From NCBI GenBank assembly GCA_919902675.1, contig CAKKRH010000012.1:16178-80177 (forward strand): a stretch of DNA of 64,000 nt, written 5' to 3'. Positions 2 to 25,598 of the stretch are shown here, one piece after another. Below the pieces are notes generated by a model. It was not told where the DNA came from. It ran no database searches and was given only the letters and a program-made list of their open reading frames with translations. Origin of the DNA: Omnitrophica bacterium GWA2_41_15 (GTDB lineage Bacteria; Omnitrophota; Gorgyraeia; Gygaellales; UBA12090). Position 1 is the first letter of the stretch. Every line of letters starts with the position of its first letter. Position numbers and translations under genes: made by a program.

Positions 2-118
2 GTGGAAGACGCGGTTGAGGTAGACAAGATGTTTACTATGCTGATGGGGGATGTGGTAGAGCCCCGCCGGGCCTTTATTGAAAGCTACGCCCACCAGGTG
101 AAAAATTTGGATGTATAA
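2..118 (+). CDS. gyrB: DNA gyrase subunit B, C-terminal end (5' part lies outside the window)
   Basis: Frame from nt 2 reads [38 protein letters not shown]-stop, the conserved GyrB C-terminus. It lies directly upstream of gyrA. Confidence 0.85.
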
Positions 119-3251: not shown

Positions 3252-3262
3252 CTTTATAATTA

Positions 3263-3294
3263 GCTATCGGCTTTCAGCCGATAGCCGATAGCGG
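3263..3294. repeat. Hairpin plus heptamer repeat (GCCGATA family) between tRNA-Glu and glmS
   Basis: GCTATCGGC (3263-3271) pairs perfectly with GCCGATAGC (3277-3285) across a 5-nt loop. GCCGATA is then repeated in tandem (3277-3290). Confidence 0.6.
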
Positions 3295-3304
3295 AAAGCT
3301 ATAT

Positions 3305-6768: not shown

Positions 6769-9700
6769 ATGTGGTTTACTTTAAGTATGCCCCATAGGTG
6801 TAATAAGCTCATTTCCTTCACCTTATGTCTTTTGCTTCTTCTGGAACAAACCGGTTTGGCCCAGACCGTCAGCCTTAACCTGTCTAACTATCTTAGCCAG
6901 GCCCCTAAGCCGGCAGTTTCGGACACCTTCCGCCCGTTACACCTGCGCTATATCTCTTATGACAATTCTAGCCAAAACTTTCAGCTTCTCTTAGACAAGG
7001 GAAGCGCTAAAAATCCGGAAAACAGCGTAGTTAATGATACCACCAAAGAACTGCTCAAGTATTTCTTTATCGGTCTAACCCTGCCTAATGAGAAATTCTG
7101 GGTCAACCTCAGGCCGGACTCGCCCGATGACATCTTGGACCCGGACTTGGAGAAGACCGACATCGGCCGGATATTCCTAGAGGCCGATGTCCAGCTTAAA
7201 AAAGATACTTCCGGGATGACCTCGCCCCAGACCCCGGAAGGCAAGCAATATTGGGATAAGCTGTATAAAAAGGCCGGAGAACTTTTCGGCAGTGAAAACA
7301 TCACCATTCCCACCTTAACCCGGCCTTGGATAGTCCCGGATGAGGTGATCATCCGGGAATCCCCGGAAGGGGCCTATATCTATAAGGCAACGCTGAAGGT
7401 GATGCTGGAGGAGGATTATCTCGAGGGATATCAGCCTTCAGCTGTCAGCTCTCAGCAATCCAAGCCAAACTACCAACTTCTAACTTCTAACTACACCTTC
7501 TCTGACCCCAGGCTTAAAGAGCTCAACGAATATTCCACCCAATTAATTAAAGAAACCATTATCCCCAAGCTCACCCGCCAGATAAATACCTCTAAACGCT
7601 ATGCCCCACTAAGACAAGTTTACTATTCCCTCATCCTGGCCCAATGGTTTAAACAGAAATACGGTCGCCAGTCTGCGGTCTCCGGCCTCCAGTCAGCAGA
7701 ACAAAATAATCCCTATGTCAAACTCATAGATTCCGGCAGCCTAACTTCAAACTTCCAACCTCTAACTTCCCAGAACCCTTATTCTAAAGAGATTTACTTC
7801 CAGCAATATCAGAAGTCCTTCAAAGACGGTGAATACAACCTCCAGGAGCCGGTATATACGCCTATGGGGCAGAGTATCAGGCGGTATATGAGCGGGGGGA
7901 TGCAAATGGATTGCTTTCCTGCGATTAAGGCAGGAAAAATTTCCGGGGCAGGCTCGCCTGTAGATGGCCTGCGGCCAATTATTAAGAAATACTGCCTGTT
8001 GATAGGTTTACCCTTTGCAATGTTTTTATCCGCAGAACCTTCTGTAAATGCAATAACCCTTAATAATAATGGGTTAAGGCTTGAAGCGGTTGTTGAGAGC
8101 GAAGAATCATTGGAAGAGGTGGTAAGGGTGGCATGTAAAAGATTAGGTCTCAATATCGAAGATGGGGACATCAAGGGATATGTAGCTATTCTTCATAATC
8201 AATACCCCGCGGAAGTTAAAAGAGGTGATAGCATAAATATAAAAGAATTGGTTGAAAAAATGATTGTAGAAGATATTTTGAAAAAATGCGAAGTTGTTTC
8301 GAAGCAATTAATAGAAGTCGACAATATAAAGTATAAGGTCTATTTTGTTAAATCAGGCAAGGATATCAAATATTTTTCTTCAACAAAAGGGGCTTCCATC
8401 GGTGACACCATTTTTATTAATTTGGAGATTTTGAAACGGGATGTTAAGTCCGCATTGGAGGATAGGGTAAGGAATTTTATACCTCCTGGGACAACAGAAG
8501 CCGAGTTATTCAATGATACGCTCAAAGCAACGCTTATACATGAATTGATGCATATATTATTATCTAAGTGGTTGAAGGAAGGATTGAAAACATCGCATTT
8601 GGATGAGGTGCTGAGTGATTGGTTTGGAGAAGTTCCATCGGCAAAGAGTTATATGATGAAACAAGAATTAATAGCTCATCTTGCGCAAACCTTAAGCAGC
8701 CTTTATCCGAAGAGTTATTTAGCCAGCTTCATGGCGGGCTTGATTAGCAATGACCATCCGGAATGGTACATCAATATTTTTGCGCTGATTATTGATGAAG
8801 TGCTTAATCCGGGAGCGGATGGCGATCCAGTAAAAAGGTTAGAAAGGTTATCCAATGTTGAAATTATGGGTACGGTTAGGGGGATGTTAGAGAAATACTT
8901 TAGGAAAGATATAATCAAAATACTTTTAGAGCTTCAGAAAGCGGTTGATGGATTACTTTCTGCCGAGAAAAAGCCAAACAATATTGGAAACGGCGATGCG
9001 ATTCATAGCATCCCTACCGAGAAAGCGGAGTCTCCTATAATCCCGGATTCTTCCGGCAGTCCGGCTACGGAAAAAATAAAGGAGTACATTCCTCCTGGCT
9101 CCTCTTCTCCTATGGAGCCCCCTTCCGCCAGCTTGAAGCCTGTGGATGAAGAAATGCAGCGATACATTGATAAGATGGCAGAAGTAATTTTTAATCCGCA
9201 AACAAATAAGTTTGTTGATAGTCTGCCTATTGAAGATTTGTCGCTAGGGATAACTATAGAAAAACTTACCGGAGGAAACAGGGGGAAACCCGTCTATAAA
9301 CTATCCACAGGAAGTGAAAGCGTGGTGGTAAAGTTTTTTCCTCCAAAATTGCCGGACATAGAAAGTGATTTTGATATTGAGCGTATAGGGTTAGAGAGGG
9401 GAAAAGGACTTCCAGGGTTTCAGCAGCTCAGAGCCAGCAAAAAATATCCGGATTTGAATGTAAGTTATATTTTAACTGAGTTTATTCCCGGGAAAAGTTT
9501 TTCCGCCGGGAAGTGGGACTTTTGGGAATATCAGAAAAAACAGAGCGAATATATTAAAAAATTAACCCCGGAAATTGAAATAATGCCCTTAGAGCACTGG
9601 AAGCAATTAGTTTTAATATATTTACGGGCCGATGAAAACGAAATTACGCTGGATGTTAGTCCGGAGAATTTTAAATATCACCCCGAGAGAGGGTTTATGG

Positions 9701-10218
9701 TTTTGGATTATTATCCTAGAGGAGGAGGGCTTTATTTTAGCCATTATTCAGTAGAGCATGATGTTGTGGAAATAGTTACCGGCATAAAGGAGCATATGCT
9801 TGGAACAGATAACAAGCTTGTAAAGTTTATTAAGAAAAAGATATTTGAAGCCCAGAAGGCAGTAAATAAAGAGGTTAAAACCGGCGGTATTGACCTAAGC
9901 CGCATCAATAAGAGCATGCGTATGGAAAGCGTATCTTCGCCCGGATCCGGAGGTTTGGATAGCCCGGTGGATGTAGATTTCGATTTGGATGAGGAGCTCT
10001 CCCAACTGCAGAAATTACTTAACGCCCAGATCATCCCTTCAGCCGACCGGCTGAAGCGCTATGCCTATGCCGCCCGCGCAAGCTCTTTTTCTTCTCCGGA
10101 GTCAGCCGACAGCGCCCTTTCGCTTGTAGCCGAGACCTTCCGCCTGCAGGAGGAGAATGCCCTCCCCGCCTCCCCGGAGCTCAAAGCCCTGGCTGCCTGG
10201 CTGGAGCAGACCGGGTAA
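6769..10218 (+). CDS. Large secreted multidomain protein: conserved-unknown N- and C-terminal parts, central HExxH zincin-like and protein-kinase-like modules
   Basis: 1149-aa ORF with a signal-like segment LISFTLCLLLLLEQTGLAQT. HELMH is encoded at 8539-8553. Kinase-like motifs lie at ~9250-9740 (GGNRGKPVYKL..VVVKF, LTEFIPG, LDVSPENF, VLDYY). The central ~7950-9900 is visibly AT-richer than the flanks. Confidence 0.75.
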   Translation: MWFTLSMPHRCNKLISFTLCLLLLLEQTGLAQTVSLNLSNYLSQAPKPAVSDTFRPLHLRYISYDNSSQNFQLLLDKGSAKNPENSVVNDTTKELLKYFFIGLTLPNEKFWVNLRPDSPDDILDPDLEKTDIGRIFLEADVQLKKDTSGMTSPQTPEGKQYWDKLYKKAGELFGSENITIPTLTRPWIVPDEVIIRESPEGAYIYKATLKVMLEEDYLEGYQPSAVSSQQSKPNYQLLTSNYTFSDPRLKELNEYSTQLIKETIIPKLTRQINTSKRYAPLRQVYYSLILAQWFKQKYGRQSAVSGLQSAEQNNPYVKLIDSGSLTSNFQPLTSQNPYSKEIYFQQYQKSFKDGEYNLQEPVYTPMGQSIRRYMSGGMQMDCFPAIKAGKISGAGSPVDGLRPIIKKYCLLIGLPFAMFLSAEPSVNAITLNNNGLRLEAVVESEESLEEVVRVACKRLGLNIEDGDIKGYVAILHNQYPAEVKRGDSINIKELVEKMIVEDILKKCEVVSKQLIEVDNIKYKVYFVKSGKDIKYFSSTKGASIGDTIFINLEILKRDVKSALEDRVRNFIPPGTTEAELFNDTLKATLIHELMHILLSKWLKEGLKTSHLDEVLSDWFGEVPSAKSYMMKQELIAHLAQTLSSLYPKSYLASFMAGLISNDHPEWYINIFALIIDEVLNPGADGDPVKRLERLSNVEIMGTVRGMLEKYFRKDIIKILLELQKAVDGLLSAEKKPNNIGNGDAIHSIPTEKAESPIIPDSSGSPATEKIKEYIPPGSSSPMEPPSASLKPVDEEMQRYIDKMAEVIFNPQTNKFVDSLPIEDLSLGITIEKLTGGNRGKPVYKLSTGSESVVVKFFPPKLPDIESDFDIERIGLERGKGLPGFQQLRASKKYPDLNVSYILTEFIPGKSFSAGKWDFWEYQKKQSEYIKKLTPEIEIMPLEHWKQLVLIYLRADENEITLDVSPENFKYHPERGFMVLDYYPRGGGLYFSHYSVEHDVVEIVTGIKEHMLGTDNKLVKFIKKKIFEAQKAVNKEVKTGGIDLSRINKSMRMESVSSPGSGGLDSPVDVDFDLDEELSQLQKLLNAQIIPSADRLKRYAYAARASSFSSPESADSALSLVAETFRLQEENALPASPELKALAAWLEQTG
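7470..7497 (+). repeat. In-frame heptamer array (AACTTCT word family) inside the large ORF
   Basis: CTACCAACTTCTAACTTCTAACTACACC. The 17-mer TCTAACTTCTAACTACA (7479-7495) is identical to 17377-17393, which lies in the right arm of the carA-carB cassette. Confidence 0.8.
7741..7770 (+). repeat. Second in-frame array of the same word family
   Basis: CTAACTTCAAACTTCCAACCTCTAACTTCC, translated as LTSNFQPLTS. It has the same orientation as the array at 7470. Confidence 0.75.
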
Positions 10219-15782: not shown

Positions 15783-15820
15783 CAGAGTTAAGAGTAAAGA
15801 ATTAAGAGCTAAGTTAGGTT
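15783..15820. repeat. Solo heptamer array (TAAGAG/TAAAGA word family) 3' of tRNA-Arg
   Basis: CAGAGTT AAGAGTA AAGAATT AAGAGCT AAGTTAG. The 12-mer TAAGAGTAAAGA (15789-15800) also occurs at 25032-25043, in the left arm of the second cassette. Confidence 0.7.
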
Positions 15821-16977: not shown

Positions 16978-16982
16978 AAACA

Positions 16983-17010
16983 GAAGTTTGAAGTTTGAAG
17001 TTTGAGGTTA
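16983..17010. repeat. Left inverted arm of four-helix-bundle cassette 1 (4 x 7 nt)
   Basis: GAAGTTT GAAGTTT GAAGTTT GAGGTTA, located immediately after the carA stop. Confidence 0.8.
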
Positions 17011-17015
17011 GGAAT

Positions 17016-17381
17016 ATGGAAAAGTTTATTTTTGAAAAATTAGAGGTATATAAAAAAGCCTTAGAATTCATAGGAAAAGTAATTGATACGGCAAAAACCT
17101 TGCCCACAGATATAAAATACACTTTGGGAAAGGAGTTGATAAAAACAAGCGTGTCTATTGCCAATAATTTAGCTGAGGGAAGCGGCAGAAGAAGCAGAAA
17201 GGAAAAAAGACAATTTTATGATATTGCTCAAGGCTCCATATTTGAATGTATTCCTATGCTTAGTGTATTAAAAAATAAAACATTTATTACTCAAGAAGAA
17301 TATTCAGAGTTATATGAGTATTGTTTTGTAATGGCTAAAATGGTTTCCGGCTTAATCCGCCACCAAACTACTAACCTCTAA
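17016..17381 (+). CDS. Four-helix-bundle protein (23S rRNA intervening-sequence protein / Avd family)
   Basis: FEKLEVYKKALEF...SVSIANNLAEGSGRRSRKEKRQFYDIAQGSIFEC matches the family signature (NIAEG..R.S.KE...F..IA.GS..E). The ORF is AT-rich. The ATG at 17016 is preferred over the TTG at 16995. Confidence 0.85.
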   Translation: MEKFIFEKLEVYKKALEFIGKVIDTAKTLPTDIKYTLGKELIKTSVSIANNLAEGSGRRSRKEKRQFYDIAQGSIFECIPMLSVLKNKTFITQEEYSELYEYCFVMAKMVSGLIRHQTTNL

Positions 17382-17395
17382 CTTCTAACTACAGC
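17364..17395. repeat. Right inverted arm of cassette 1
   Basis: AACTACT AACCTCT AACTTCT AACTACA. The reverse complement GTTAGAAGTTAGAGGTTAG matches the left-arm GTTTGAAGTTTGAGGTTAG at 17 of 19 positions. The arm overlaps the ORF stop. Confidence 0.8.
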
Positions 17396-17400
17396 TTTTT

Positions 17401-20400
17401 ATGCCAAAAAGAACCGACATCAAAAAAATCCTGATTATTGGCTCTGGTCCGATCATTATCGGCCAGGCCTGCGAGTTTGATTATTCCGGGACCCAGGCCT
17501 GTAAGGCTTTACGGGAAGAAGGTTTTAAAGTAATTTTGGTCAATTCTAACCCGGCAACCATTATGACCGACCCGGAAACCGCGGACAGGACCTATATTGA
17601 GCCGATAACCGTGGAGATGTTAGAGAAGATTATTCAGAAAGAAAAACCCGACGCTCTGCTTCCTACTTTAGGCGGACAAACCGGATTAAATGTAAGTATC
17701 AAGCTGGCGGAGGCCGGAATCCTGGATAAGCATAAGGTTCAGATGATTGGCGCTGACCGTAAGGCTATCAAGAAGGCCGAGGACCGCAAGCTCTTTAAAC
17801 AGGCGATGCAAAAAATCGGCCTGGATTTGCCTAAGAGCGGATTGGCCCGCGACATAAAAGAAGCCAAAAAGATTGCCGCGAAAATCGGCTTTCCGCTGAT
17901 TATCCGTCCTTCCTTTACCTTAGGCGGCAGCGGCGCCGGCACAGTTTATACCGCGCAGGAATTTGAGCTTATGGCCCGGAGGGGTCTGGAATCCAGCATG
18001 ATTTCCGAGATCCTGATTGAAGAATCCATCATCGGCTGGAAGGAATATGAGCTGGAGGTAATGCGGGATAGAAAAGACAATGTGGTGATCATCTGTTCTA
18101 TTGAGAACTTTGACCCGATGGGGGTGCATACCGGAGATTCTATCACCGTGGCCCCGGCCCAGACTCTGAGCGACCGGGAATACCAGAAGATGCGCGACGC
18201 GGCAATTGCCTGTATCCGGGAAATCGGAGTGGAAACCGGTGGTTCAAATATCCAGTTCGCGGTCAATCCGGATAATGGCCGGATGGTGGTGATTGAGATG
18301 AATCCCAGGGTTTCCCGTTCCTCAGCCCTGGCCTCCAAGGCCACCGGTTTTCCCATTGCCAAGATTGCCGCCAAGCTGGCGGTAGGTTATACCCTGGATG
18401 AAATCCCCAATGATATCACCAAAAATACCCCGGCCTCTTTTGAGCCGACTATAGACTATTGCGTGGTCAAGATTCCCCGTTTTGCCTTTGAAAAATTCCC
18501 TTCGGCAGACTCTACCCTGACTATTCAGATGAAGTCCGTGGGCGAGGTAATGGCTATCGGCCGGACTTTTAAAGAGGCCCTGCAAAAGGGAATCCGCGGC
18601 CTGGAGATTAAGCGCGACGGCTTAAGCGGGATAAAATATAAGGATAAAACCGAACTGGAAGAACAGTTAAAAAGGCCGAACGCGGAAAGATTATTTTATC
18701 TCTATGAAGCGCTTAAAGAAAATTATTCCTTAGACAGGCTTTATGAGCTAACCAAGATAGACCGCTGGTTTCTGCAAAACTTAAAAGAGCTTGTAGAATT
18801 TGAGAGTCAGCTTTCAGCAAAAGAAAACCCTCCGCAAGAAATAATTTTAAAAGCCAAACAGCTGGGTTTTAGCGATAAACAAATAGCCAGGATTTTAAAT
18901 AAAGACGAAGATAGCGTCCGGGCCTTGCGCAAGGCCCAAGGTGTTGAGCCGGTGTATAAGCTGGTGGATACCTGCTCCGCGGAGTTTGAGGCCTGGACTC
19001 CGTATTATTATTCTACTTATGAAACGCCCTTCGCTAAACCCGAAACCCGAAACCCGAAACCCGAAACAAATCCTAATGACCAAAACCAAAATTTCCAAAT
19101 TACCGAAGACGAAACCAGAAAGACCGAGAAGAAAAAGATTATGATTTTAGGCGGAGGGCCGAACCGGATCGGCCAGGGGATAGAGTTTGACTATTGCTGT
19201 GTGCACGCCTCTTTTGCCCTCAAAGAAATGGGTTATGAGACCATAATGGTTAACTCTAACCCCGAGACTGTCTCCACTGATTACGATACCTCGGATAAAT
19301 TATACTTTGAACCCTTGACCAAAGAAGATGTACTAAATATCATCGATAAGGAAAAGCCGGAAGGGGTAATTGTGCAGTTGGGCGGTCAGACCCCTTTGAA
19401 TCTGGCGGTGCCGCTTAAAGAGGCCGGGGTGAGGATTTTAGGCACTTCGGCCGATGCCATTGACCGGGCTGAGGACCGCAAGCGTTTTTCCCAGCTGGTG
19501 GAAAAATTAGGCCTGGTTCAGCCGGCTAACGGCAGCGCGGTTACCTTTGAGCAGGCTAAGACAATCGCTCGAAAAATCGGCTATCCGGTTTTGGTCAGGC
19601 CTTCGTATGTTCTTGGTGGCCGGGCCATGGAGATCATCTATGACGATCAGGCCCTGGAGTATTATATTCAGCGCGCGGTCTGGGCTTCTCCGGAGCGTCC
19701 GATTCTGGTGGATAAATTTATTGAGGATGCCATTGAAGTGGATGTGGATATGGTTGGCGACGGGGAAACCTTTTGTATTGGAGCAATTATGGAACATATC
19801 GAAGAGGCCGGGGTGCATTCAGGCGACGCGGCCATGGTTTTGCCGGCGCATACCTTAACCCCTGAGATTTTAGATAAGGTCCGTGATTATACATATCGCC
19901 TGGCCAAAGAGCTGAATATTATCGGTTTAATGAATGTGCAATACGCGGTCAAAAATAGCACCGTCTATATCTTAGAGGTTAACCCCCGGGCCTCACGCAC
20001 CGCGCCTTTTGTTTCTAAGGCTATCGGCGTGCCCCTTGCCAAGTTAGCGGCCAAGGTAATGGCAGGTGAGACTCTTAAAGAACTGGGCTTTACCCGGGAA
20101 ATTACCCCAAAACACATTTCAGTCAAGGAATCCGTCCTGCCTTTTGTGAAATTTCCCGGAGTGGACATAACCTTAGGCCCGGAGATGAAATCAACCGGCG
20201 AGGTAATGGGCATTGATACCGATTTTGGCCGGGCTTACGCCAAGAGCCAGCTGGCCGCTTATCAGAATTTGCCCGCGGCCAAAGGCACGGTTTTCATCAG
20301 CGTCAAAGACAAGGATAAAAGAACACAGATGGCCAAGACCGCCAAGAAGCTAAAGGACTTGAAATTTGAAATTATCTCAACTCTGGGCACGGCTAAGTTC

Positions 20401-20793: not shown

Positions 20794-21594
20794 ATGCCGG
20801 AACTGCCGGAAGTGGAGACTATAAAGCGGGATTTGGAGAAGGTGATTGTCGGTAAAAAGATTACCGATGTCTGCGTACACCATCCGGCAGTCATCCGCCA
20901 GCCTTCGCCGGATAAGTTTAAAAAGGGAATAGAGGGCGCGCTTATCAAAAATATCCTGCGCAAAGCCAAGGTCTTGATTTTGGAACTATCTAACGGCAAG
21001 TCTTTGACCGCGCATTTAAAGATGACCGGGCAATTGGTTTATCCGGGAAGCGGAGTAAAGAGCCGGGTAAGCTTTCATCTCTCAAATGGTAAGAATTTAG
21101 ACTTTAATGACCAGAGGCTTTTTGGCGAATTGCGCCTTTTGGACGACTGGCGCTCCTTGAAATTTATCCAGGGCTTAGGCCCTGAGCCGTTTGATATGAG
21201 CGAAACGCGGTTTAAGGAAATACTGGCTAAGAAAAAGACCAAAATCAAACCCCTTTTAATGGATCAGTCTTTTATTTCCGGAATCGGCAACATCTACGCC
21301 GCCGAGGGCCTGTTTCGAGGCCGGATCCATCCCGCAAGGCCGGCTAACAGCCTTTCGGATAAAGAGAAGGAGCTTCTTTTTAAGGAAATTAAAGCCACCC
21401 TGAAAGAGGCCATTGAGGCCGGCGGTTCTTCGGTGGACGATTATGTGCGGCTTTCCGGCGAACGAGGCGGCTACGCGAAATACCATAAGGTTTACGGCCG
21501 CCAGGGTAAGCCTTGTCTAGCCTGCAAAACCCCGATTAAAAGAATAGCCTTAGGTGGTCGAGGCACCTTCTTTTGCCCCAAATGCCAGAAATGA
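20794..21594 (+). CDS. mutM: Formamidopyrimidine-DNA glycosylase
   Basis: MPELPEVE N-terminus (catalytic Pro2/Glu3) and the C-terminal zinc finger CLACKTPI...FFCPKCQ. 266 aa. Confidence 0.93.
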   Translation: MPELPEVETIKRDLEKVIVGKKITDVCVHHPAVIRQPSPDKFKKGIEGALIKNILRKAKVLILELSNGKSLTAHLKMTGQLVYPGSGVKSRVSFHLSNGKNLDFNDQRLFGELRLLDDWRSLKFIQGLGPEPFDMSETRFKEILAKKKTKIKPLLMDQSFISGIGNIYAAEGLFRGRIHPARPANSLSDKEKELLFKEIKATLKEAIEAGGSSVDDYVRLSGERGGYAKYHKVYGRQGKPCLACKTPIKRIALGGRGTFFCPKCQK

Positions 21595-22457
21595 AACCTT
21601 TTCAAATAACCGCTAAAATCATCTCAAATAAAAATATAAAAAATAATTACTTTGAAATCGTTTTGCTTGCTCCACAGATAGCCCGGAATGCCCTGCCGGG
21701 GCAGTTTGTGAATATCAAGACCAGCGAGGGATTTGAGCCGTTATTACGCAGGCCGTTGAGCATACATAGGATTGGTCGCCAGTCTCGAGTCGCCAGTCTC
21801 GAGTCAAAAGAAGGTAAAGAGATTATAATGCTTTATGAGGTCCTGGGCAAAGGCACGCAAATACTTTCTCAGAGAATGCAGGGTGAGTTTTTGGATGTGA
21901 TTGGGCCATTAGGTAACGGTTTTAATTGCTATCCGCTATCCGCTATCCGCTATCCGCCGATTTTGATTGCCGGGGGAATGGGCACCGCCCCCTTAGTTTT
22001 TCTCGCGGAAAGATTAGTCCACAGTCCACAGTCCATAGTCCATAGAAAGCCGTTGGTCTTGATTGGTGCCAGGTCAGAAAGCCATATTCTTTGCGAAAAA
22101 GAGTTTAAAGAATTGGGGTGCGAGGTAAAAATTGCCACCGACGACGGCTCCCGCGGATTTAAGGGTTATGTCAGCAGTTTATTAACTGAAATCCTGTCAA
22201 CCGTCAACTGTCAACCGTCAACTATATATGCTTGCGGGCCAAAGCTTTTGCTTAAGGAAATCAGCCGGATATCCCTTGAGCAGAATATCCCGGCCCAGCT
22301 GTCCTTGGAATCGCATATGGCCTGCGGAATCGGGGCCTGTATGGGATGCGTAATAAAAGTAAAAAGTAAAAAGGCAAAAGGCAAAATTGACGACGAGTAT
22401 AAACGGGTTTGCAAAGAAGGGCCGGTGTTTGAGGCTCGGGAGATAGCTTGGGAATGA
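21591..22457 (+). CDS. pyrK: Dihydroorotate dehydrogenase electron-transfer subunit
   Basis: PGQFVNI, LLRRPLSI, GPLGNGF, and the C-terminal 2Fe-2S motif MACGIGACMGC...VCKEGPVF. The ATG at 21591 overlaps the mutM stop. It contains five tandem arrays. Confidence 0.9.
   Translation: MKPFQITAKIISNKNIKNNYFEIVLLAPQIARNALPGQFVNIKTSEGFEPLLRRPLSIHRIGRQSRVASLESKEGKEIIMLYEVLGKGTQILSQRMQGEFLDVIGPLGNGFNCYPLSAIRYPPILIAGGMGTAPLVFLAERLVHSPQSIVHRKPLVLIGARSESHILCEKEFKELGCEVKIATDDGSRGFKGYVSSLLTEILSTVNCQPSTIYACGPKLLLKEISRISLEQNIPAQLSLESHMACGIGACMGCVIKVKSKKAKGKIDDEYKRVCKEGPVFEAREIAWE
21775..21805 (+). repeat. In-frame tandem array in pyrK (14 nt x2, an ABAB heptamer pattern)
   Basis: GTCGCCAGTCTCGA GTCGCCAGTCTCGA GTC, translated RQSRVASLES, immediately after the conserved RRPLSI motif. 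Confidence 0.9.
21928..21955 (+). repeat. In-frame heptamer array in pyrK (GCTATCC x4)
   Basis: GCTATCC GCTATCC GCTATCC GCTATCC, translated CYPLSAIRYP, between the GNGF and GGMGTAP motifs. Confidence 0.9.
22016..22045 (+). repeat. In-frame heptamer array in pyrK (AGTCCAC/AGTCCAT x4)
   Basis: AGTCCAC AGTCCAC AGTCCAT AGTCCAT AG, translated HSPQSIVH. It shares the 13-mer ACAGTCCACAGTC with the pyrD array. Confidence 0.9.
22196..22223 (+). repeat. In-frame heptamer array in pyrK (GTCAACC/GTCAACT, ABAB)
   Basis: GTCAACC GTCAACT GTCAACC GTCAACT, translated STVNCQPST, just before YACGP. Confidence 0.9.
22355..22386 (+). repeat. In-frame heptamer array in pyrK (AAAAGTA x2, AAAAGGC x2)
   Basis: AAAAGTA AAAAGTA AAAAGGC AAAAGGC AAAA, translated [10 protein letters not shown], inside the Fe-S cluster region. 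It is near-identical to the 21-mer at 20686 and 56210. Confidence 0.9.
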
Positions 22458-23407
22458 GGGAAGGCCTGGTGGTAAATATAGGAAGACTGCGCTTAAAAAA
22501 TCCGGTGATGGCGGCCTCCGGCACCTTTGGCTACGCCGAGGAGTTTAAGCATTTTATAGATTTAAAGAAGTTAGGGGCAATAGTTACTAAAACTATTACC
22601 TTGAAGCCGCGCGTGGGAAATCCCCCTCCGCGCACCTGCGAAACTCCGGCCGGATTGCTTAATTCTATCGGTTTGGAGAATCCCGGGATAGACAGGTTTA
22701 TCGATGAGAAAATACCTTTTATCAAGAGCCTGGGCGTGCCTTTAATTGTCAGTATCGCCTCAGAAGGAGGCGTTGAGGAATTTGTCAGCCTGGCTAAGCG
22801 TTTAGATAGGGTAAAAGAAGTCTCTGCTATTGAACTGAATATTTCCTGTCCCAATATTAAAAACAGTCCACAGTCTACAGTCTACAGTCTACAGAAAAAC
22901 AATGGACAATTGATTTCACAAGACGCAAAGGCGACATACGAAGTGGTTAAGATGGCGCGTAAGGCTACCCGGAAAACCTTGATCACCAAGCTGTCTCCGA
23001 ATGTTACCGATATTACGGAAATTGCTCAGGCCGCCCAGGATGGGGGAAGCGATTGCCTGGCCTTGATAAACACCCTGATGGGAATGAGTGTTGATGTGCG
23101 CACCCGCAAGCCCAAGATAGCCATGGTGACTGCCGGCCTAAGCGGCCCGGCTGTCCGACCGGTGGCCTTACGGATGGTCTGGGAGGTTTACAAAAAAGTC
23201 AAAATCCCCATAATCGGGATGGGCGGAATAACCGACACTGAGAGCGTCCTGGAATTTTTTATAGCTGGAGCAAGCGCTATTGCCGTGGGCACGGCTAATT
23301 TTATCAATCCCCGGACTATGATTGAAATCATTTCCGGCTTAGAGAAATATTTAGCCCGGAATAGAATCAAAGACATAAAAGAACTGATAGGAAGCCTGAA
23401 GATATGA
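22454..23407 (+). CDS. pyrD: Dihydroorotate dehydrogenase (class 1B) catalytic subunit
   Basis: NPVMAASGTFGY, GLENPG, ELNISCPN and GGI motifs. The ATG at 22454 overlaps the pyrK TGA (ATGA). Confidence 0.94.
   Translation: MREGLVVNIGRLRLKNPVMAASGTFGYAEEFKHFIDLKKLGAIVTKTITLKPRVGNPPPRTCETPAGLLNSIGLENPGIDRFIDEKIPFIKSLGVPLIVSIASEGGVEEFVSLAKRLDRVKEVSAIELNISCPNIKNSPQSTVYSLQKNNGQLISQDAKATYEVVKMARKATRKTLITKLSPNVTDITEIAQAAQDGGSDCLALINTLMGMSVDVRTRKPKIAMVTAGLSGPAVRPVALRMVWEVYKKVKIPIIGMGGITDTESVLEFFIAGASAIAVGTANFINPRTMIEIISGLEKYLARNRIKDIKELIGSLKI
22864..22894 (+). repeat. In-frame heptamer array in pyrD (CAGTCCA/CAGTCTA x4)
   Basis: CAGTCCA CAGTCTA CAGTCTA CAGTCTA CAG, translated SPQSTVYSLQ, directly after the ELNISCPN active-site motif. 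Confidence 0.9.
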
Positions 23408-24463: not shown

Positions 24464-24492
24464 TTGACAGACCGGGGATTACAGGGTAGTAT
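24464..24492 (+). promoter_or_regulatory. Putative sigma70-type promoter
   Basis: TTGACA (24464-24469), 17-nt spacer, TAGTAT (24487-24492). A strong RBS AAGGAGGAGG precedes the ATG at 24530. Confidence 0.55.
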
Positions 24493-24529: not shown

Positions 24530-24931
24530 ATGAAAAATACAATCGCGGCGATTATGTTGTTAGGGTGTTGTATGTTTGTTCAATCGGTTTCTTATGCCAA
24601 GGGCTCGGAGGTAAAGGAGTGTAATTTAGAAAAGCACGCCAAAAAAGCCAAAGGGGCCAAAGCGGATAAGATTAAGGCCAGGCTTGATAAATGGACCAAG
24701 GCCTTAAGCCTGACCCCCGAACAGCAGGCCCAAACCAAAGAAATCCTCGCCAAGGCCAAAGAGGACATAAAGGTTGTCTGGAAGGACACCAAGGCCAAAA
24801 CCAAGGAAATCCGCGTTGCGGCGCATGACCAAATAGCCGGCATTTTGACAGATGAGCAGAAGGCCAAATTCCAGAACCTGCGCAAGGAATGCGAAGAATC
24901 CCCCGAAGCCCATAGCGAGAGTAAGGAATAA
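24530..24931 (+). CDS. Periplasmic Spy/CpxP-family (LTxxQ motif) protein
   Basis: Signal peptide ending SVSYA. Two LTxxQ motifs (LTPEQQAQTKEIL and LTDEQKAKFQNL). Lys-rich helical protein of 133 aa. Confidence 0.7.
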   Translation: MKNTIAAIMLLGCCMFVQSVSYAKGSEVKECNLEKHAKKAKGAKADKIKARLDKWTKALSLTPEQQAQTKEILAKAKEDIKVVWKDTKAKTKEIRVAAHDQIAGILTDEQKAKFQNLRKECEESPEAHSESKE

Positions 24932-24938
24932 AATATTC

Positions 24939-25012
24939 GGGCGCTTAGCTCAGCTGGTTAGAGCATCTGCTTTACACGCAGAGGGTCAGGGGTTCAAGTC
25001 CTCTAGCGCCCA
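24939..25012 (+). tRNA. tRNA-Val (anticodon UAC)
   Basis: Acceptor GGGCGCT/AGCGCCC, anticodon stem TCTGC/GCAGA with loop TTTACAC, T-loop TTCAAGT. 74 nt. Confidence 0.9.
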
Positions 25013-25014
25013 TT

Positions 25015-25043
25015 AAAGCAGAGTAAAGAGGTAAGAGTAAAGA
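25015..25043. repeat. Left inverted arm of four-helix-bundle cassette 2
   Basis: AAAGCAGAGTAAAGAGGTAAGAGTAAAGA starts 3 nt after tRNA-Val and runs into the ATG. Confidence 0.85.
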
Positions 25044-25408
25044 TGAGTGCGGATGAGCCTCGGTATAGAAGGTTGCTGATATGGAAAAAAGCGCATAATA
25101 ACGCGATTATCTTGATAACGTTAATAAAAAACTGCAACTCGAAATACGGCCGCGTTATAGATCAATGTCTTGGCAGTGTTACCTCAATAGGCGCGAATAT
25201 CGCGGAAGGTAATGAATCCGCGACACATAAACAAAAAGAAAGCTATTTCCAGATTTCCCTGAATTCGGCATACGAATTGGATAACTGGCTGCAAATATTA
25301 AAAGACGGAGAAATAATTACCGACAAAGAAAAAATAGCAGTGATAGAAAAAGAAAACATTGAAGTAATCAAAATTTTGTGTACAATAATTAAATCCCTTA
25401 GGTTTTGA
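25043..25408 (+). CDS. Four-helix-bundle protein (23S rRNA intervening-sequence protein / Avd family)
   Basis: 121 aa. LLIWKKAHN...SIGANIAEGNES..HKQKESYFQISLNSAYELDNWL fits the family signature. The ORF is AT-rich. Confidence 0.8.
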   Translation: MSADEPRYRRLLIWKKAHNNAIILITLIKNCNSKYGRVIDQCLGSVTSIGANIAEGNESATHKQKESYFQISLNSAYELDNWLQILKDGEIITDKEKIAVIEKENIEVIKILCTIIKSLRF

Positions 25409-25412
25409 TTTT

Positions 25413-25448
25413 TCTTTACTCTTACCTCTTTACTCTTAATTCTGCTTT
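25413..25448. repeat. Right inverted arm of cassette 2
   Basis: TCTTTACTCTTACCTCTTTACTCT (25413-25436) is the perfect reverse complement of 24 nt of the left arm. After a 5-nt insertion, CTGCTTT completes the match. The arm ends 3 nt before tRNA-Asp. Confidence 0.9.
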
Positions 25449-25451
25449 ACT

Positions 25452-25530: not shown

Positions 25531-25541
25531 TAAACAACATA

Positions 25542-25570
25542 AACCGCGAAATCTCTCGCGGTTTTTTGTT
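25542..25570 (+). terminator. Intrinsic terminator after the tRNA cluster
   Basis: AACCGCGA / TCGCGGTT stem with a 6-nt loop, followed by TTTTTGTTTT. Confidence 0.75.
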
Positions 25571-25598
25571 TTGATAAAGCGTAAAAATGTTGTATAAT
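25571..25598 (+). promoter_or_regulatory. Putative sigma70-type promoter
   Basis: TTGATA (25571-25576), 16-nt spacer, TATAAT (25593-25598). Confidence 0.6.

Follow-up and report, generated by a model that had tools for sequence, protein, structure and literature searches.

In a 64,000-nt stretch of Omnitrophica bacterium GWA2_41_15 (contig CAKKRH010000012.1, positions 16,178 to 80,177; this whole stretch is called the window below, and its first letter is position 1), the genes for tRNA-Val(UAC) and tRNA-Asp(GUC) are separated by a 439-nt spacer that contains one open reading frame (ORF), encoding a four-helix-bundle protein of the PF05635 family, and that folds as one closed stem-loop. The strands of the stem are inverted tandem arrays of a 7-nt unit. 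The best explanation, which we favour with moderate confidence, is that a PF05635 gene cassette enclosed in inverted heptamer arrays has replaced the short, promoter-bearing spacer of an ancient tRNA-Val-tRNA-Asp pair, and that this cassette would be transcribed by read-through, released by the nucleases that form the tRNA ends and masked by its own stem. The arrangement suggests how RNA processing alone could provide for both the expression and the control of a promoterless gene, through a combination of tRNA punctuation and an end-to-end stem.

The spacer is a gene enclosed in a stem of heptamer arrays

The elements of the locus, all on the + strand, are as follows.

24939-25012, +, tRNA-Val(UAC) (anticodon TAC in the DNA), called by ARAGORN and Rfam; CCA not encoded
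25014-25019, +, outer 5′ stem strand TAAAGC, which pairs with 25444-25449
25020-25043, +, 5′ arm AGAGTAAAGAGGTAAGAGTAAAGA, from the repeat search; 3.4 heptamer units (AGAGTAA/AGAGGTA)
25043-25408, +, ORF of 121 aa, a PF05635/TIGR02436 four-helix-bundle protein (23S rRNA intervening sequence protein/Avd-like), from profile hidden Markov models and AlphaFold2
25413-25436, +, 3′ arm TCTTTACTCTTACCTCTTTACTCT, from the repeat search; 3.6 heptamer units (TCTTTAC/TCTTACC)
25437-25443, +, asymmetric 7-nt bulge TAATTCT between inner and outer stem, on the 3′ side only
25444-25449, +, outer 3′ stem strand GCTTTA, the partner of 25014-25019
25452-25527/25530, +, tRNA-Asp(GUC) (anticodon GTC in the DNA), called by ARAGORN and Rfam; CCA encoded

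The two arms are 24 nt long and 100% complementary, as had been claimed in a sequence-only reading of this spacer. That reading also had pairing resume beyond a bulge. It does, with six outer pairs added to the 24 bp when either the precursor or the spacer alone is folded, but the bulge measures 7 nt rather than the 5 nt given there. A single unpaired nucleotide is left after tRNA-Val and two are left before tRNA-Asp. The energy of the arm duplex is -50.8 kcal/mol, and none of 100 shuffled sequences folded as well (z -4.5 and -4.0). Tandem Repeats Finder called a period of 7 in both arms, at 25020-25043 (3.4 copies) and 25413-25437 (3.6 copies).

The arms are closely fitted to the ORF. The A of the start codon is the final base of the 5′ arm (25043), and a Shine-Dalgarno-like AAAGAGGT (GAGGT) lies within this arm at 25028-25032. 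The 3′ arm holds ACCTCTTT (ACCTC) at 25424-25428, which resembles the anti-Shine-Dalgarno end of 16S rRNA. Rfam detected only tRNAs in the window, with no rRNA and no family overlapping the arms. An assembly artefact was rejected since the identical structure, arms included, is seen again in independent assemblies. A transposon of the insertion sequence (IS) or miniature inverted-repeat type was likewise rejected, there being no transposase and no direct target duplication; the sequences outside the arms are inverted (TAAAGC/GCTTTA), not direct, repeats.

The ORF encodes a PF05635 protein

PF05635 is a very large family that has so far been linked to intervening sequences (IVSs) of rRNA genes and, distantly, to Avd of diversity-generating retroelements (DGRs). 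The assignment of the Val/Asp ORF to PF05635/TIGR02436 is secure: it matches PF05635 (23S_rRNA_IVP) with E 2.9e-19 and 69.7 bits (cutoff 33.8), and TIGR02436 ('four helix bundle protein') with E 5e-22 and 78.2 bits (cutoff 24). The AlphaFold2 monomer model, based on 23 homologues, consists of four long helices with a predicted local distance difference test score (pLDDT) of 94.4. Its best Foldseek matches in the PDB are BT_0352 (2RLD) and XCC0516 (2GSC), with template-modelling (TM) scores of 0.74-0.87 and root-mean-square deviations of 1.3-2.8 Å; both belong to the 'S23 ribosomal protein' family and comprise five chains per entry, and a profile of the Val/Asp protein matches 2RLD at E 1e-11. 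The next matches are to Avd of the Bordetella phage DGR (4DWL, 8UB7; TM 0.75-0.79). The family carries a conserved motif, GxxRxxxSxxxNxxE (PMC3936711). At the corresponding positions of the Val/Asp protein S48, N52 and E55 are invariant in the subfamily, and the G and R positions are taken by Q41 and G44. Neither of the two four-helix-bundle proteins in the window matched the PADLOC anti-phage models.

The arrangement is conserved and the gene is maintained

A search of 5.8 billion proteins returned 46 homologues with 49-98% identity, and all those with a source name are labelled Candidatus Omnitrophota or Omnitrophica. For 12 of the 46 the DNA was fetched, yielding 20 contigs (L001-L020); 20 of 20 carry the gene in the spacer from tRNA-Val(TAC) to tRNA-Asp(GTC), with all three on one strand. 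The co-oriented Val-ORF-Asp order is found in every orthologue examined (L001-L024, L139 and L180; 43-98% identity; about 15 Omnitrophota lineages), including the 43%-identical Omnitrophota copy in L024. A comparison of this spacer among relatives had been proposed as a check together with the sequence-only reading, and the cassette indeed recurs, arms included, across Omnitrophota lineages. In 10 lineages with an uninterrupted cassette, the distance from tRNA-Val to the stem is 1-7 nt and that from the stem to tRNA-Asp 0-7 nt. The neighbouring protein genes vary by lineage (pyrF/LTXXQ, V-type ATPase, F-type ATPase or M48 peptidase); those of the window are LTXXQ, MazG-like, pyrF, CBM_11 and STAS/PilZ.

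Selection acts on both the ORF and the 3′ arm. The pairwise ratio of nonsynonymous to synonymous substitution rates (dN/dS) of the ORF is 0.13-0.29, the protein alignment has 31 invariant columns, and almost all lineages with identities of about 50% or more have an intact ORF of 119-130 aa, the one shorter case being the 93-aa ORF of L024. The core of the 3′ arm is identical at 29 of 29 positions between the window and L180, with third codon positions 70% identical. The 5′ arm is more variable in length: in strains with 98% protein identity it is longer by 7 nt (L001) or 35 nt (L003) with the 3′ arm unchanged, and these differences are whole heptamer or 14-mer units (L001 401-437 and L003 1456-1520 versus 25013-25042 of the window). 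The four-helix-bundle protein has diverged roughly in step with PyrF; because ORF divergence thus approximately follows that of host genes, the ORF is old and retained. Judged by these substitution patterns, the Val/Asp ORF is a maintained gene under purifying selection, and more than a parasitic spacer filler.

On a neighbour-joining tree of PyrF, which is a tree of a single protein without support values, carriers fall into at least two groups with empty-site lineages between them, a pattern that looks patchy. There may have been one ancient gain followed by losses, or the cassette may have been gained more than once, for instance through recombination in the almost invariant tRNAs on either side.

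Relatives without the cassette carry a short spacer with a promoter

Metagenome contigs were scanned for the anticodon-to-T-arm signature of tRNA-Val, ignoring the cassette. This yielded 83 distinct spacers followed by a same-strand tRNA-Asp; 67 of the 83 are at most 200 nt long (median 60). A promoter of the form TTGnnn-16..18-TAnnnT is present in 55 of these 67 short spacers, and in 43 of the 55 the -10 box ends 12-19 nt before tRNA-Asp. Many short-spacer contigs have pyrD-pyrF upstream of tRNA-Val with 60-70% protein identity to the window, which argues that they are from real relatives. The ancestral state, as read from these relatives, is therefore a short spacer bearing tRNA-Asp's own promoter.

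The larger spacers hold a variety of insertions. Two contigs (L139, L180) carry the four-helix-bundle cassette, and others have free-standing ORFs for LAGLIDADG homing endonucleases on the tRNA strand, identified by Pfam (L101/L171, 12-962; L159, 7-705; L122, L126 and L160), several of which are broken or decayed. A PIN-domain toxin ORF with a 70-aa ORF upstream of it, which we read as a VapBC-like pair, occupies the spacer in L151, an IS256-like transposase that in L154 and a 3.9-kb gene block that in L158. In L018-L020 an rve-type IS separates tRNA-Val from the four-helix-bundle ORF, and in three cassette-bearing contigs an 88-aa GIY-YIG ORF lies just upstream of, or overlaps, the start of tRNA-Val (L010 2572-2838, L014 2334-2600, L015 441-707). 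Arms also occur without an ORF. In six contigs (L108, L119, L135, L199, L208 and L213) inverted heptamer arms close a 73-133-nt spacer from tRNA to tRNA and, in five of the six (all but L208), the loop contains the canonical tRNA-Asp promoter. Short spacers in L115, L116 and L182 resemble arm remnants, and L116, L182 and L200 have a 3′-arm-like array only.

ORFs of the PF05635, LAGLIDADG and GIY-YIG families have all been reported in rRNA insertions of bacteria of the candidate phyla radiation (CPR) (PMC11270868). Since the same three families recur in or next to the Val-Asp spacer, the analogy with rRNA IVSs is supported, and by this comparison the discarded spacer of a tRNA pair behaves as a place where insertions are tolerated. 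Spacers of this sort may thus admit insertions as rRNA helices and introns do.

The cassette could also be a neutral or parasitic insertion comparable to the Coxiella IVS, that is, a selfish element in a discarded spacer with no host function and a protein that is not needed. The LAGLIDADG ORFs (some decayed), IS256-like transposase, VapBC-like pair and rve-type IS in the relatives' spacers fit such a scenario, as do the patchy distribution on the PyrF tree and the remnant-like short spacers of L115, L116 and L182. The dN/dS values and intact ORFs of nearly all lineages do not, nor does a 3′ arm conserved beyond neutral expectation, nor an ORF whose divergence follows that of host genes. We regard a purely parasitic origin and maintenance as very improbable. 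Rather, the tRNA-spacer copy is fixed, is kept throughout a phylum-level radiation and evolves under purifying selection, and the PF05635 family therefore has a host-relevant function.

Transcription signals imply read-through of the cassette

The candidate signals of the unit are the following.

24464-24492, +, promoter-like site TTGACA-17-TAGTAT, the candidate start of a unit LTXXQ - tRNA-Val - ORF - tRNA-Asp
24530-24931, +, LTXXQ-motif ORF, which stops 7 nt before tRNA-Val and is probably co-transcribed with it; an LTXXQ neighbour is also present in L003 and L004
25359-25386, +, promoter-like site TTGAAG-16-TACAAT within the 3′ end of the ORF, score 9/12; possible secondary promoter of tRNA-Asp
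25541-25572, +, intrinsic terminator after tRNA-Asp, the only one in the unit; stem 25541-25564 plus a T tract

Between 24464-24492 and 25359 no promoter-like site was found on the + strand, and the window has no terminator-like site between tRNA-Val and tRNA-Asp. The only terminator had been said to follow tRNA-Asp, and the terminator search returned 25541-25564 as the sole site of the unit. Across lineages, uninterrupted spacers are likewise devoid of a terminator, except for one weak ORF-internal match in L005, and in 7 of 13 lineages tRNA-Asp is followed, at a distance of 3-15 nt, by a canonical terminator. In a cassette that is not interrupted, the 5′ arm extends as far as the start codon, and the stop codon overlaps or immediately precedes the 3′ arm. 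A promoter for the ORF cannot be accommodated between tRNA-Val and the start codon, a distance that the 5′ arm fills, and cassette carriers lack the canonical spacer promoter of tRNA-Asp that is seen in relatives. With no room for a promoter, no terminator and the canonical promoter lost, read-through within a tRNA precursor is the simplest reading. This layout of signals strongly implies that the unit is co-transcribed and that tRNA processing sets the spacer free.

The promoter-like site inside the ORF offers a different account, in which the three genes are largely independent: tRNA-Asp would be transcribed from 25359-25386, the ORF message would be a read-through tail of tRNA-Val, and the co-transcript and stem would have no particular role. 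The site is found in the window, L004, L005 and L006 and, in a weaker form, in L011 and L013, and in the ORF-less relatives with arms the tRNA-Asp promoter has a corresponding position, immediately before the 3′ arm. It is, however, absent from L007, L012, L014, L016 and L018, and since these lineages have no other candidate promoter for tRNA-Asp, read-through across the ORF would be needed there to make this tRNA. A conserved ORF-internal promoter of tRNA-Asp was therefore rejected as a general feature, being restricted to about half of the lineages. Furthermore, the 9/12 match lies in the most conserved motif of the protein (NIEVIKIL), so that its conservation may reflect the protein and, with no terminator from ORF to tRNA-Asp, transcripts of the ORF would in any case enter tRNA-Asp with both arms. 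Independent expression of the three genes is improbable on these grounds.

A predicted route from precursor to message

Maturation of a CCA-less tRNA involves an RNase Z-type cut after the discriminator base, and RNase P cuts at +1 of the following tRNA. From the anatomy described above we infer that the unit is co-transcribed and processed, that the stem forms in vivo and is cut by RNase III, and that translation is masked, as follows. The ORF, having neither promoter nor terminator of its own, would be carried in a read-through precursor consisting of LTXXQ mRNA, tRNA-Val, ORF, tRNA-Asp and terminator. An RNase Z-type cut after the CCA-less tRNA-Val and an RNase P cut at +1 of tRNA-Asp would release a 439-nt spacer RNA, the first and last 30 nt of which are predicted to pair in a 24+6 bp stem with overhangs of 1 and 2 nt. 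This stem would bury both the GAGGT ribosome-binding site and the AUG, and would be long enough for RNase III, as with rRNA IVSs; translation would then depend on the stem being cut or opened. The protein would be functional and is probably a pentameric nucleic-acid-binding bundle like Avd. No RNase III signature was found in the 64-kb window, a result that carries no information on the complete genome.

Across phyla, PF05635 genes are flanked by inverted heptamer arrays

The window contains 21 period-7 arrays and at most four arrays of any other period. In other Omnitrophota lineages the units of the cassette differ (ACTAAGA, GCTAAGA, TTTAAGA) and their inverted orientation is kept. We sampled 80 PF05635 loci from one-genome-per-species contigs, about 75 of which are not of the Val/Asp type and come from Chloroflexota, Acidobacteriota, Planctomycetota, Bacteroidota, Firmicutes, Patescibacteria, Gammaproteobacteria and others. 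A period-7 array lies within 120 nt of the ORF in 51 of these approximately 75 loci, and the density of such arrays is 4.3 per kb beside the PF05635 ORF versus 0.24 per kb elsewhere in the same loci. An arm score of at least 30, counting Watson-Crick pairs only, was reached by 42 of 75 PF05635 ORFs compared to 2 of 289 other ORFs of the same loci (Mann-Whitney p = 3e-27). Inverted arrays of this kind thus characterise the gene family over a wide range of phyla. Each lineage has units of its own (ATGAACA, GGATAAC, CAGGTGT, TAGCTTC and others). Heptamers that supply stops in all three frames make up only 15 of 42 5′ arms and 13 of 42 3′ arms, and this is not a general property of the arrays.

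None of 77 PF05635 loci lies inside an rRNA gene; Rfam returned only tRNAs and one distant 16S fragment, and no family that extends over the arms. One locus from Thermodesulfovibrionia (L034, 2365-3021) has its PF05635 ORF between tRNA-Lys(TTT) and tRNA-Glu(TTC) on the same strand, with arms of -52.9 kcal/mol, and is a second, independent tRNA-spacer cassette. The link of PF05635 to stable-RNA operons reaches beyond rRNA.

Do the arms act as RNA or as DNA?

Several observations weigh against the favoured explanation, and in particular against a stem selected as RNA. First, G-U pairs are no commoner in the arms than A-C mismatches, either in the Val/Asp set (14 versus 11) or in 27 other cassettes (39 versus 32), and selection for an RNA helix on the sense strand is therefore not demonstrated. 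Second, several lineages owe most of their arm complementarity to a common 5-nt core of the heptamer and not to compensatory change. Third, similar arrays occur without a partner, as after tRNA-Arg in the window, and in frame inside genes. Fourth, where ORF-less arms surround the tRNA-Asp promoter, a transcript from that promoter would carry one arm only. Finally, the ORF-internal promoter-like site at 25359-25386 could supply tRNA-Asp in about half of the lineages.

A serious rival is accordingly that the arms act as DNA or as single-stranded arrays, as binding or recombination sites, perhaps recognised by the four-helix-bundle protein or another factor, their ability to fold being a by-product. 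The lack of a G-U/A-C asymmetry and the dependence of complementarity on the shared core are both as expected from arms of this kind. The same holds for the orphan arrays of the same unit families at 15784-15814, 7469-7495 and 7741-7770, the in-frame arrays in pyrK, pyrD and carB, and the promoter-flanking ORF-less arms of L108, L119, L135, L199, L208 and L213. Strains that are otherwise almost identical differ in unit number (+7 and +35 nt), as DNA slippage typically produces, and the 3′ arm is conserved in its sequence, beyond the mere ability to pair. On the other side, the perfect 24-nt complementarity in the window includes variable unit positions, and lineages repeatedly show a stem that closes only a few nucleotides from each of the two tRNA processing sites. 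The 29-nt core of the 3′ arm that is identical in the window and L180, against 70% identity at third codon positions, also speaks for selection as RNA. A role at the RNA level further fits the placing of the codons, with the start directly at the last 5′ unit and the stop within the first 3′ units, and the 5′ arm tends to carry purines on the sense strand, although this is a trend only (27 versus 14, p = 0.06). On balance we consider a DNA-level or protein-binding role of the arrays rather unlikely, yet the strongest of the alternatives to a released and stem-masked message.

A broader, speculative possibility, to which we give slightly less credence still, is that PF05635 proteins and heptamer arrays form a two-part system in which the protein binds or helps to propagate its cognate arrays elsewhere (orphan, ORF-less and in-frame). 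If this were true, rRNA IVSs, the tRNA-spacer cassette and the heptamers of cyanobacteria, Xanthomonas and Beggiatoa would be one phenomenon. In a narrower version, cassettes may lodge between conserved stable-RNA genes which serve as portable homology arms for lateral spread.

Comparison with known systems

PF05635 ('S23p') ORFs occur in 23S/16S rRNA IVSs of Leptospira, Coxiella, Xanthomonas and Brucella and in rRNA insertions of CPR bacteria. By definition, an rRNA IVS is transcribed within a stable-RNA precursor and excised from it with no re-ligation. The stems of rRNA IVSs are cut by RNase III, and the Coxiella IVS ORF is decaying and apparently untranslated (PMC4990558). The Val/Asp cassette shares with rRNA IVSs its protein family, the enclosure of the ORF by a long complementary stem, a length of stem sufficient for RNase III (at least 22 bp) and, as far as can be read from its signals, a co-oriented position in a stable-RNA unit with neither promoter nor terminator of its own; the site class also attracts LAGLIDADG and GIY-YIG ORFs (PMC4990558, PMC11270868). 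Unlike an rRNA IVS, it lies between two tRNA genes and not in a helix of 23S/16S rRNA, it fragments no functional RNA, so that its excision is unnecessary for function, and the nucleases that form tRNA ends could release it on their own. It is, moreover, old and lineage-wide, whereas rRNA IVSs are sporadic among strains, and its ORF is under purifying selection, unlike that of Coxiella. The sequence-only reading had called the cassette directly analogous to a 23S rRNA IVS. This is right in architecture and probably in transcription: family, long stem and co-orientation all agree. The arms are not private to the insertion, given that heptamer arrays flank PF05635 genes across phyla. The same reading knew of no description of the arrangement, and we found none either, nor any of the link between heptamer repeats and PF05635, in the searchable literature, outside of which most subscription journals fall.

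Punctuation by tRNAs is a feature of mitochondrial polycistrons, and mixed tRNA-mRNA operons exist in bacteria, as in thrU-tyrU-glyT-thrT-tufB and tyrT-tpr of E. coli. In the bacterial operons known to us, the mRNA is downstream of the tRNAs and has ordinary untranslated regions. As in tRNA punctuation, the Val/Asp coding RNA abuts same-strand tRNAs on both sides (with 1 and 2 nt unpaired) and the message would, by analogy, owe its two ends to cuts by RNase P and RNase Z. It differs from the known bacterial tRNA-mRNA operons in that the message is between two tRNAs and its two ends pair.

Heptamer repeats of bacteria have been described since 1990 and have, to our knowledge, no accepted function; the short tandemly repeated heptamers (STRR) of cyanobacteria are an example. 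TAACTGA repeats are present in Beggiatoaceae, cyanobacteria and Bacteroidetes (PMC4679880), and GGGAATC repeats form 70-75 convergent pairs in Xanthomonas (PMC4692102). The arrays described here resemble such repeats in being tandem 7-nt units of 2-6 copies, mostly intergenic and often ending beside a start codon, with lineage-specific units, convergent stem-loop pairs and a copy number that varies between strains. They differ from the repeats of PMC4679880 and PMC4692102, where PF05635 is unmentioned, in that inverted arrays specifically bracket PF05635 ORFs. This association may open an experimental route into bacterial heptamer repeats.

Avd, a DGR accessory protein, is a pentameric bundle that binds nucleic acid and reverse transcriptase. 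The Val/Asp protein has the same fold (TM 0.75-0.79) and belongs to the same superfamily; unlike Avd, with which it shares about 15% sequence identity, it is adjoined by neither a reverse transcriptase nor a template/variable repeat pair. A DGR component was rejected on the ground that no reverse transcriptase is among the identified neighbours.

Other heptamer features of the window

The Val/Asp cassette had been taken to be the second of its kind in the window, and a first one is indeed present upstream, between carA and carB. This cassette and an orphan array consist of the following elements.

16982-17393, +, first PF05635 cassette, between carA and carB, from Pfam and repeat analysis
16982-17019, +, its 5′ heptamer array (GAAGTTT), a period-7 call
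16995-17381, +, its PF05635 ORF, from Pfam
17363-17393, +, its 3′ heptamer array (AACTTCT family), a period-7 call
15784-15814, +, orphan array AGAGTTA AGAGTAA AGAATTA AGAGCTA (nnTAAGA, the 5′-arm unit family), directly after tRNA-Arg(CCG)

The inverted arms of the carA/carB cassette are imperfect; they likewise hold GAGGT and ACCTC. Its protein is 35% identical to the Val/Asp protein over 49 residues and was detected by Pfam only, tblastn having found no close paralogue of the Val/Asp protein in the window. The orphan array has neither an ORF nor an inverted partner.

The arrays at 7469-7495 and 7741-7770 (AACTTCT/AACTACN, the 3′-arm family of carA/carB) lie inside an ORF of 1149 aa (6769-10218). 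Five in-frame arrays are present in a pyrK-like ORF at 21573-22457 (21775-21805, 21928-21957, 22015-22045, 22196-22222 and 22355-22386), and there is one each in pyrD (22863-22894) and carB (19036-19067). The in-frame arrays, although in conserved enzyme genes, sit at variable loops, and that of pyrD is an insertion relative to the L013 orthologue. At 3253-3300, after tRNA-Glu, AGCCGAT units form a hairpin (GCTATCGGCT / AGCCGATAGC).

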